Shown here: piece by piece, positions 7,148 through 10,309 of the stretch | Layout: each line of letters opens with the position of its first letter | Position numbering within the stretch: the first letter of the stretch is position 1 | IMG/VR virus record: IMGVR_UViG_3300005329_000001 | DNA: 18,330 nt | Source of the DNA: a virus | Taxonomy: Duplodnaviria; Heunggongvirae; Uroviricota; Caudoviricetes | Direction: 5' to 3' (one strand) | Notes under the pieces: generated by a model | What the model was told of the DNA's origin: nothing | Seen by the model: only the letters and a program-made list of their open reading frames with translations | Databases searched by the model: none | Made by a program: the position numbers and the translations under genes

Positions 7148-7152
7148 TCGAC

Positions 7153-7263
7153 GCGCAGAAGTCTGAACCACGACACCAGCCAGTGAGGGCGAAAGCACCT
7201 GGGAGTGGGAGACGAAAGTCGATTGCACCACGCCGGAGACGCGGGAGTATAGCCCGCCTGCGC
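7153..7263 (+). ncRNA. Candidate structured RNA with three GNRA-capped hairpins
   Basis: Closing stem GCGCAG/CTGCGC; GC-GAAA-GC, GAC-GAAA-GTC, CG-GAGA-CG. Confidence 0.5.
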
Positions 7264-7273
7264 ACACTGATAG

Positions 7274-7344
7274 GCCCCTGTCGTTCAATGGCAGGACGCA
7301 TCCTTGGTAAGGATGAAAAGAGGGTTCGATTCCCTCCCGGGGCT
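7274..7344 (+). tRNA. trnT: tRNA-Thr(GGT)
   Basis: Full cloverleaf; loop TT-GGT-AA. Confidence 0.93.
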
Positions 7345-7346
7345 CC

Positions 7347-7576
7347 GCATCTTGATTTCGAGCCATCGCGGCGAGCGGAAGGAATCGTCTCGCTGAGGAA
7401 GTTCGCGGGTGCTCAGGACGAGTGTCCGAGCTCTGTGGGAGGAGAAATCCGCTGAACCACAACTCGGCCTGCACTAAGGCAAACAGGAGATGTTGACCCT
7501 GTCCGGCGAGTCTCCGGGTTGCTGCTTAGACGAATGATGGCATAGAACAAAACCGCGGCTACGGATCTCAAGATGT
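7347..7576 (+). ncRNA. rnpB: Minimal RNase P RNA (catalytic domain intact, specificity domain strongly reduced, no P18/P19)
   Basis: P1 7347-7355/7568-7576; P2 7362-7368/7535-7541; P3 7370-7394; GAGGAAGUUCGCGG pairing with CCGCGGCU (7553-7560) as P4 with bulged U7402; P5 GUGC/GCAC; P15/P16 with GGU at 7517-7519; AGACGAAUGA and AACAAAAC conserved segments. Confidence 0.9.
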
Positions 7577-7579
7577 CTT

Positions 7580-7651
7580 GTCCTCGTAGTGAAACGGATA
7601 TCACGCGACGCTACGAACGTTGTATTCCAGGTTCGAATCCTGGCGAGGACG
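7580..7651 (+). tRNA. trnR: tRNA-Arg(ACG)
   Basis: Full cloverleaf; loop CT-ACG-AA. Confidence 0.95.
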
Positions 7652-7654
7652 CTG

Positions 7655-7822
7655 ATGGAAGAGCCTTTCAAGATTCCATGGATTCACAGGCAAGACGTCA
7701 GGTACGTCAAAAGAGGGATGTACCGCCTGGTGATCTACGCAAGACGGCACTTCTACTATGACGTGTTTCTCGAGTTCTGCTCTCGTGGTGAAACGGACAT
7801 CATGCAGCCCTCCGAAGGCTGA
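7655..7822 (+). CDS. Possible small ORF (MEEPFKIPWIHRQD...), 3' end overlaps tRNA-Arg(CCG)
   Basis: Fills a 127-nt spacer; GAGG upstream; overlap with a tRNA lowers confidence. Confidence 0.3.
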   Translation: MEEPFKIPWIHRQDVRYVKRGMYRLVIYARRHFYYDVFLEFCSRGETDIMQPSEG

Positions 7823-8332: not shown

Positions 8333-8406
8333 GCCGACGTAGTCCAACTGGTAGAGACGTCCGCCTTAGAAGCGGAACAGTAGGAGTTCGAATCTCCTCG
8401 TCGGCA
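8333..8406 (+). tRNA. trnL: tRNA with Leu anticodon TAG but short variable loop
   Basis: Loop CT-TAG-AA; 5-nt variable loop ACAGT. Confidence 0.88.
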
Positions 8407-8411
8407 CTCAT

Positions 8412-8485
8412 GCTCCCGTAGCCCAACTGGTAGAGGCACCGCATTCAAAACGCGGGCAGTATCGGTTCGAATCCGATCGGGAGTA
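8412..8485 (+). tRNA. trnL: tRNA with Leu anticodon CAA but short variable loop
   Basis: Loop TT-CAA-AA; 5-nt variable loop GCAGT. Confidence 0.88.
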
Positions 8486-8518
8486 CAATCTGGTCAGTGC
8501 GAAGAAAGGAAGCGTGTC

Positions 8519-9064
8519 GTGGAGACCCTGGTACTTGACGTCGCATACAGACCACACAGCCGCGTTCCGTGGCAAGAGGCGATCATCAAGGTCCTCGTCG
8601 ACAAGACTGTAGAGGTCGTCGAGAACTACCCGGATCGCTACATCAACACAGTGAGCTGGAAGATCGAGATGCCTTCGATCGTCCGGCTCATCATGCCCGT
8701 GAAGAAGGAGAAGGCCATCAAGTTCTCCCGTCACGGCATCTACGCTCGCGATAAGGGTAAGTGCCAGTACTGCGGGAACCGCGTCTCGAAGAAGGAGATG
8801 CAGTACGAGCACGTGATCCCACGTGCCCAGGGTGGAAAGACATGCTGGGAGAACATCGTCGTCGCCTGCATGTCATGCAACCAGCGGAAGGCCGGTAGGA
8901 CTCCTGCGCAAGCGGGAATGCGCCTCTTGTCGACGCCGGTAAAGCCGAAGAGACTCCCAGACATGGGAGACTACGGCATGACCTACAACCCGGGCATGCC
9001 AGAGGCGTGGAAGACGTACTTGAGATCCCACGCTTACTGGAACGTAGCTCTCGAGGAAGAATAA
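8519..9064 (+). CDS. HNH endonuclease (McrA-like HNH family with N-terminal LVLD..Y.P extension)
   Basis: RDKGKCQYCG...EHVIPRAQGGKTCWENIVVACMSCNQRK; GTG start with AAAGGA SD. Confidence 0.92.
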   Translation: METLVLDVAYRPHSRVPWQEAIIKVLVDKTVEVVENYPDRYINTVSWKIEMPSIVRLIMPVKKEKAIKFSRHGIYARDKGKCQYCGNRVSKKEMQYEHVIPRAQGGKTCWENIVVACMSCNQRKAGRTPAQAGMRLLSTPVKPKRLPDMGDYGMTYNPGMPEAWKTYLRSHAYWNVALEEE

Positions 9065-10215: not shown

Positions 10216-10305
10216 CGGCCTGTAGGTTAACGGTAAGACCGACCGCCTTATAAGCGGGGAGCGCCAGATAAGCGCGAAGTGCGGGTTCGAATCCCGCCAG
10301 GCCGA
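10216..10305 (+). tRNA. tRNA with anticodon TAT (Ile AUA reading) and a long variable arm
   Basis: Loop CT-TAT-AA; GCGC-CAGATAA-GCGC variable arm; C1-G72, A73. Confidence 0.85.
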
Positions 10306-10309
10306 CCGA

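Follow-up and report, generated by a model that had tools for sequence, protein, structure and literature searches.

A miniature RNase P RNA gene in the tRNA array of a large soil phage and its relatives in other phage tRNA loci

The tRNA array of an uncultured soil phage contains a gene of about 230 nt for an RNase P RNA of bacterial type, which is probably a functional, phage-encoded ribozyme with little left beyond its catalytic domain. The RNA of RNase P belongs to the small number of ribozymes that are universal and, to our knowledge, has been considered a gene of cells and organelles alone. A gene of this kind in a virus would extend the translation-related functions of large phages to tRNA 5' processing. 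Within the incomplete span of literature that we covered, we found no description of an RNase P RNA encoded by a virus, and the family of such RNAs in phage arrays is apparently unpublished.

The DNA analysed here, which we call the window, is a stretch of 18,330 nt corresponding to positions 181,814-200,143 of a complete 210,330-bp uncultured phage genome from IMG/VR, which has direct terminal repeats and a G+C content of 59.6%. DNA of this soil phage is present in many rhizosphere metagenomes and in one mine metagenome. Its terminase is less than 30% identical to those of cultured phages, among which it has no close relative, and 21 uncultured relatives were recovered at 55-100% terminase identity. 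ARAGORN places 43 tRNA genes in the window between 2.7 and 12.1 kb, all on the + strand; 36 of these calls reach the Rfam tRNA cut-off and 7 miss it. A canonical T-loop is present in 42 of the 43 tRNAs and the D-loop GG likewise in 42, and the 3' CCA is encoded by only 15 of the 43 genes. Searches of the phage genome revealed no CCA-adding enzyme (PF01743). Most open reading frames of the window belong to no known family.

Several of the tRNA calls, at window positions 8333-8486, 11925-12077, 10216-10307 and 11850-11922, are odd. Among the odd calls are four tRNA-Leu of only 75-77 nt that lack the long variable arm, a 92-nt tRNA-Ile(TAT), a tRNA-Tyr(ATA), and overlapping Met/Met and Ile/His predictions. 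A free-standing HNH endonuclease gene (HNH_5, E 2e-15) lies within the array at 8519-9064 (+).

Identification and architecture of the RNA

A preliminary description of this DNA, made from its letters alone, had proposed that an RNase P RNA is embedded in the tRNA array and had named a covariance-model search against the RNase P families as the check. When run with lax filters on the 321 bases around the RNA, cmscan aligned RF00010 (RNaseP_bact_a) to 7350-7577 (+) with 46.6 bits and an E-value of 1.5e-13; this match, the strongest given by any Rfam family of the RNase P clan, establishes that the RNA is real and lies where it had been placed. The alignment spans the whole model from end to end (1-367), and a search of the complete genome with RF00010 recovered the same match (E 2.3e-14) as the sole one in 210 kb. 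The Rfam gathering cut-off for this family is 100 bits and the score of the window RNA falls short of it; consequently, a default Rfam search of the window reports only tRNAs and misses the RNase P RNA. A blastn comparison of the RNA with 50,697 cultured-phage records gave no match.

The features recognised in and around the gene are listed below; L249 is a contig from a close relative of the phage.

7274..7346 (+): tRNA-Thr(GGU) (ARAGORN; Rfam tRNA, 55.1 bits), with discriminator U7344 and no encoded CCA
7348..7577 (+): miniature RNase P RNA gene of ~230 nt (RF00010 match, 63-bp model, identity to L249)
7348-7355/7568-7575 plus 7357-7360/7562-7565 (+): P1, 12 pairs, nearly all with compensatory changes across homologues
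7362-7367/7536-7541 (+): P2, a perfect 6 bp in nine of nine homologues, with 7 different sequences
7370-7394 (+): P3 hairpin (Rfam alignment, RNAalifold)
7395..7408 (+): CR-I (GAGGAA) and the P4 5' strand (RF00010 alignment)
7400-7408/7553-7560 (+): P4, with U7402 bulged; two columns covary across the lineage
7409-7412/7471-7474 (+): P5, enclosing the 58-nt specificity-domain remnant (whole element 7409..7474)
7416-7420/7500-7504 (+): P6 pseudoknot, 5' strand in the remnant and 3' strand in L17; covaries across the lineage
7426-7430/7463-7467 (+): P7, in the specificity-domain remnant
7435-7438/7457-7460 (+): GUGG/CCAC helix, in the specificity-domain remnant
7441-7450 (+): P9-like hairpin with a GAAA loop, in the specificity-domain remnant
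7475..7523 (+): J5/15 (UAA) through the P15 3' strand (RF00010 alignment, RNAalifold)
7478-7481/7520-7523 (+): P15
7486-7491/7510-7515 (+): P16
7516-7519 (+): L15 GGGU, which would pair with the substrate 3' CCA
7524..7527 (+): P18 site, 4 nt between P15 and CR-IV; place of an HNH insertion in L249
7528-7536 (+): CR-IV (AGACGAAUG, J18/2) (RF00010 alignment)
7546-7552 (+): CR-V/J2-4 (ACAAAAC), followed by the P4 3' strand at 7553-7560
7580..7652 (+): tRNA-Arg(ACG) (ARAGORN; Rfam tRNA, 58.5 bits)

The secondary structure comprises 63 modelled base pairs, placed by hand and by homology, all of which are canonical. In the RF00010 alignment P1, P2, P3, CR-I, P5, a P9-like hairpin, P15, P16/17, the L15 GGGU, CR-IV and CR-V are retained. 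The elements named in the preliminary description could be located in this structure, among them the P4 helix with a bulged U, in which U7402 is the bulged base and the pairs (A-U, G-C, U.G, C-G, G-C, C-G, G-C and G-C) are all canonical; the GGU of P15, within the L15 GGGU; the AGAYGAAUGA and ACARAA segments, corresponding to CR-IV and to ACAAAAC at 7546-7552; and a specificity domain of about 58 nt, this being the exact distance between the P5 strands. The absences that it had reported are likewise borne out by the RF00010 alignment. There is no CR-II/CR-III module and no P12-P14, the distal specificity domain (P10-P14) having shrunk from 105 model positions to 7 nt, with smaller losses elsewhere; the 24 model positions of P18 are reduced to 0, which leaves a spacing of only 4 nt from P15 to CR-IV.

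The core also has peculiarities of its own. The P4 strands are altered (GAGGAAGUUC / GGCUA), such that the segment 7395..7408 reads GAGGAAGUUCGCGG versus the canonical GAGGAAAGUCCGG, and J3/4 is one nucleotide shorter. P3 is the most variable helix. The gene is tightly packed between the tRNA-Thr and tRNA-Arg genes that had been given as its flanks and that both ARAGORN and the Rfam tRNA model recover: P1 starts 3 nt past tRNA-Thr(GGU) and ends (7575) 4 nt before tRNA-Arg(ACG).

Selection in close relatives and an endonuclease insertion

Near-identical copies of the RNA occur on two contigs from other rhizosphere samples (L248 and L289), and more divergent ones on L249, a 17-kb contig with a syntenic array of 36 tRNAs, and in X18, a variant from a mine metagenome. 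The window RNA is 93-94% identical to that of L249, as compared to 78% for the flanking tRNA-Thr and 75% for the flanking tRNA-Arg. None of the 12 substitutions in the L249 RNA breaks a pair, where random placement would break 3.9 on average (P = 0.003). At the P15 pair 7479/7522 L249 displays a double compensatory change from G-C to C-G, which it has in common with X18; two further substitutions yield G.U pairs, the GAAA loop of the hairpin becomes GAGA and so remains a GNRA loop, and the remaining changes fall at unpaired positions. X18 additionally shows a second double change, from A-U to C-G, at the hairpin pair 7443/7448, and only one of its 13 changes, in P3, breaks a pair (P = 0.027). 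Because the RNA is more conserved than the flanking tRNAs and its substitutions avoid breaking pairs, the fold is under purifying selection. The high identity could in part reflect gene conversion near a homing site rather than selection.

The homing site in question is marked by a 343-nt insertion in the RNase P RNA gene of L249, precisely where P18 would stand (between window positions 7525 and 7527). The insertion codes for an HNH endonuclease of 113 aa (L249:5230-5571 (-)) that matches PHROG 3106 with an E-value of 5e-25, and a Pfam search of this open reading frame gave no match. The end of the frame, comprising its last codons and the stop codon, overlaps CR-IV and the 3' strand of P2 in L249. 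X18 carries L249-like substitutions without the HNH insert. The interrupted RNA of L249 may or may not remain functional; the presence of an HNH gene inside a ribozyme gene shows a part of the RNA that is tolerant of insertion.

Two spacers of the array that encode no tRNA are also conserved. The spacer at 7653-7778, between tRNA-Arg(ACG) and tRNA-Arg(CCG), is 90.5% identical to its L249 counterpart, which is above the identity of the flanking tRNAs; it has no match in Rfam and a fold z-score of only -1.1. The GNRA-rich spacer at 7148-7273, upstream of tRNA-Thr, is 80% identical to that of L249. We considered the latter as a potential trans-acting specificity domain and ruled this out, as it has no similarity to RNase P RNA and a fold z-score of -0.9.

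A lineage of variant-P4 RNAs in phage tRNA loci

Two motif scans for more distant relatives were unproductive. Matches of the pattern GAGGAAGT..AGAYGAATG on viral contigs proved to be due to chance only, and the 64 matches of a three-anchor scan with miniature spacing comprised one gut-phage protein-coding gene family along with chance hits, none of them RNase P. The productive search was a size-independent scan of viral contigs for the 3' core of the RNA, which uncovered RNase P RNAs in large phages, at loci rich in tRNA genes. These fall into two sets. Members of the variant-P4 set share the strands GAGG(N)AAGUUC and GGCUA and score 33-169 bits, mostly below the Rfam cut-off. They include the window RNA, L248, L289, L249, L290, L277, L280, L274, L286 and about 30 more. 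A scan of metagenomes restricted to GGCUA gave 57 loci, most of which belong to the same lineage, with RNAs of 204-410 nt. Representative sizes are 204 nt (L290), 245 nt (L280), 277 nt (L277) and 354 nt (L298). The short members are all below the Rfam cut-offs, at 42-58 bits, and the 204-nt member has the archaeal model as its best match; current annotation misses such RNAs because their scores fall under these cut-offs.

The same reduced plan is found on soil, freshwater and marine contigs, and across the viral and metagenomic contigs the lineage members adjoin tRNA genes of the same strand, often at 0-7 nt on both sides. Beside the L277 RNA there is also a partial tmRNA-like match (L277:2-77 (-)). 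When about 186,000 species genomes were scanned, 5 loci were recovered, only one of them a true member of the lineage. This one (L302) is on a 3,650-bp contig with four same-strand tRNAs (JAYVGZ010000557.1) in a metagenome-assembled bin assigned to Pseudomonadota, and is probably a mis-binned phage fragment.

An alignment of nine short members (204-309 nt), with pairs derived from RNAalifold and from our own scripts, provides further support for the structure. RNAalifold predicts 45 pairs, of which 26 show compensatory changes, distributed over P1, P3, P4, P15 and P16; P2, P5 and the P6 pseudoknot also covary among the distant homologues. P6 is GGACG/UGUCC in the window RNA and GAGCAG/CUGCUC in L277, and comprises 7-9 bp of different sequence in L274, L280 and L286. 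P18 is missing in four members, namely the window RNA, L289, L290 and L277. The last is the nearest larger form of the window RNA, which resembles an L277-type molecule in which a 10-nt GNRA hairpin has taken the place of the distal specificity domain. The lineage represents a natural series from about 400 to about 200 nt, in which the specificity domain and P18 were lost together and P6 was kept.

The second set has a canonical P4. Its RNAs (L236, L234 and L237) are about 320 nt long and score 182-209 bits, above the Rfam cut-off. L236 is a 321-nt copy (G022:C1:305811-306131; 208 bits) in a complete 463-kb phage, and the other carriers are several contigs of 100-155 kb; the neighbouring tRNAs are separated from the RNAs by 2-7 nt on either side. 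These RNAs apparently constitute a second phage RNase P lineage, independent of the variant-P4 one.

No copy of the RNA was detected in the 21 terminase relatives, three near-complete genomes included, with RF00010, BLAST, lax cmscan or an nhmmer profile of the lineage. Positive controls in this search were strong, and the tRNA arrays of five of these relatives, with 13-38 tRNAs, were covered. Since the gene is absent from these five more distant relatives, a large array can be operated without it. The other carrier contigs, most of which are fragments, gave no match when searched for the terminase. In one terminase relative (G006), the tRNA array contains a full tmRNA (L215:3493-3844 (-); 121.9 bits), which is not an RNase P RNA.

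Proposed function, alternatives and known systems

Homology to RF00010, the core motifs, the canonical fold, selection, covariation and the array context all speak for a functional RNase P RNA. Set against these are the score under the Rfam cut-off, the departure of the P4 strands from the near-universal bacterial sequence together with the shorter J3/4, the interruption by the HNH frame in L249, and the encoding of a CCA for L15 by only 15 of the 43 tRNA genes. On balance, we consider it probable that the RNA is functional; from its architecture and surroundings we infer catalysis, the use of a host RnpA and the processing of the phage's own array.

The mechanism that we envisage would begin with co-transcription of the RNA with the tRNA array. 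Scans for sigma-70 promoters and terminators found nothing near the RNA, and this, along with the flanks of 3-4 nt, is why release by tRNA processing is proposed. The 5' end would arise through 3' maturation of the CCA-less tRNA-Thr. The 3' end, with a 4-nt tail (UCUU), would result when RNase P cuts at the 5' boundary of tRNA-Arg, 7579|7580. Maturation of the two neighbouring tRNAs would in this manner release an RNA of about 235 nt whose own 3' end is made by RNase P. The released RNA is predicted to fold into P1-P5, P15-P17, the P6 pseudoknot and a small P7/P9-like remnant, and would then most likely be bound by the host RnpA to form a hybrid holoenzyme. The preliminary description had noted that the window has no RnpA gene, and a six-frame search for PF00825 extends this to the whole 210-kb genome; the host protein is suggested as the partner because the phage encodes none and the catalytic domain is complete and under selection. 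Such a hybrid enzyme would trim the 5' leaders of the phage's 43 pre-tRNAs, with substrates probably recognised through the acceptor stem, the leader and, where present, the CCA via L15, and with the elbow formed by the T-loop and D-loop left unread.

The same retained core could alternatively act on the host rather than on the array. The regions of RNase P RNA that are kept here are known protein-contact regions. An RNA retaining this protein-binding core (P2-P4, CR-IV and CR-V) might therefore capture host RnpA and starve or redirect the host RNase P without efficient catalysis. A phage devoid of its own RnpA would be suited to such a takeover, and the loss of the specificity domain together with the altered P4 could lower catalytic efficiency, as in constructs that consist of the catalytic domain only (PMC5839562). 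Nevertheless, the L15 GGU, the A-rich J5/15, P15/P16, the P6 pseudoknot and the bulged U are conserved or covary, and these serve substrate binding and catalysis, not obviously protein capture; moreover, the demand of a phage with 43 tRNA genes is for additional RNase P activity, not for a reduction of it. We accordingly regard capture of the host protein as unlikely. To much the same degree we doubt that the RNA is a specialised ribozyme with narrower or different substrates, such as CCA-bearing or unusual tRNAs, structured spacers or phage mRNAs, perhaps working with an unrecognised phage protein in place of host RnpA. Loss of elbow recognition alters the choice of substrate, the array includes conserved non-tRNA spacers (e.g. 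7653-7778) and some odd tRNAs, and the many window frames of no known family leave room for a partner. Yet the elbows are ordinary in 42 of the 43 tRNAs, a result that also contradicts the earlier suggestion that loss of the elbow-reading domain suits many tRNAs with abnormal D- and T-loops; the conserved spacers have no significant fold or Rfam match, and no candidate protein partner was identified.

Decay offers another way to account for a shortened RNA that fails to reach the Rfam cut-off, is missing from more distant relatives and is interrupted by an HNH gene in L249: an rnpB captured from a host or from another phage could have been retained only through its position inside the array. 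We consider this very improbable, given that all modelled pairs are intact, that substitutions avoid breaking pairs (P = 0.003) and include two double compensatory changes, that the RNA is conserved above its flanking tRNAs, and that homologues of the same reduced plan with extensive covariation are present in soil, freshwater and marine samples. The two motif scans with mostly chance or coding matches, and the open reading frames that overlap the RNA in mechanical lists, might raise the suspicion of a chance resemblance or a mis-annotated protein-coding region. The full-length structural alignment at an E-value of about 1e-13, the covariation of the homologues as RNA helices and the 63 intact pairs effectively refute this, and the overlapping frames extend through tRNA genes as well.

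Comparison with known systems clarifies what is peculiar about the functional phage ribozyme that we favour. With the bacterial type A RNAs (E. coli M1 RNA/rnpB; RF00010) it shares P1-P5, P15-P17, the L15 GGU, the P6 pseudoknot, CR-I, CR-IV, CR-V and a P4 with a bulged U. It differs from them in its length of 230 nt versus about 350-400 nt, in lacking CR-II/CR-III, P10-P14 and P18, in its altered P4 strands, and in being phage-encoded within a tRNA array with no adjoining rnpA. Almost the same architecture is found in the engineered Eco CP RPR and its delta-P18 variants, which likewise consist of a catalytic domain without the specificity domain and keep a P6-type pairing (PMC5839562). In these E. 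coli constructs the catalytic-domain ribozyme depends on the P6-like pairing, and P18 is dispensable, with no gain from it, once the specificity domain is removed (PMC5839562). The joint loss of the specificity domain and P18 with retention of P6 in the phage RNAs matches these findings and is the outcome that the deletion experiments on E. coli M1 RNA predict. The Eco CP RPR molecules are laboratory truncations of reduced efficiency, whereas the window RNA is a natural gene under selection, with a small P7/P9-like remnant and a P4 of variant sequence. Compared with the other variant-P4 phage RNAs, with which it shares the P4 form and the setting in same-strand tRNA arrays of large phages, it is distinguished by its rhizosphere source, by its own remnant with an added P7 and GNRA hairpin, and by the existence of an HNH-interrupted allele.

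Comparable natural reductions are viable, as the archaeal type T RNAs and the mitochondrial rnpB of budding yeasts illustrate. The type T RNAs of Pyrobaculum and other Thermoproteaceae are about 200 nt long and retain the catalytic domain while having lost most of the specificity domain (PMC3579882). Their core is of archaeal type, with a 3-bp P2, a shortened P15, a 2-nt linker between P5 and P15, and archaeal protein partners (PMC3579882). In contrast, the window RNA has a P2 of 6 bp, a 3-nt linker (UAA) and the bacterial L15 GGU; the two reductions are a case of convergence and not of homology. The rnpB/RPM1 RNAs of budding-yeast mitochondria are of bacterial derivation and go down to about 150 nt (PMC3790967). 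They resemble the phage case in their drastic reduction, their small genome and the polycistronic transcription of tRNAs. However, they are A/U-rich, preserve little beyond P1 and P4 and work with a dedicated protein, whereas the window RNA keeps the full bacterial catalytic domain.

Taken together, these observations lead us to a wider proposal, which we advance tentatively and to which we would give slightly less than an even chance: that large phages possess an RNase P ribozyme of bacterial type, which evolution has repeatedly reduced to the catalytic domain; that the window copy is an active natural enzyme of 230 nt without elbow recognition, probably borrowing the host RnpA for maturation of the phage's own tRNAs; and that the gene also serves as an HNH homing site at P18. 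For mechanistic and structural work, the lineage supplies minimal bacterial RNase P ribozymes that need no engineering.

Close to the tRNA array, the window also encodes a 474-aa protein (14306-15730 (-)) with WGR, PARP regulatory and PARP catalytic domains (E 2e-33), which amounts to a full PARP1-like core in a phage.
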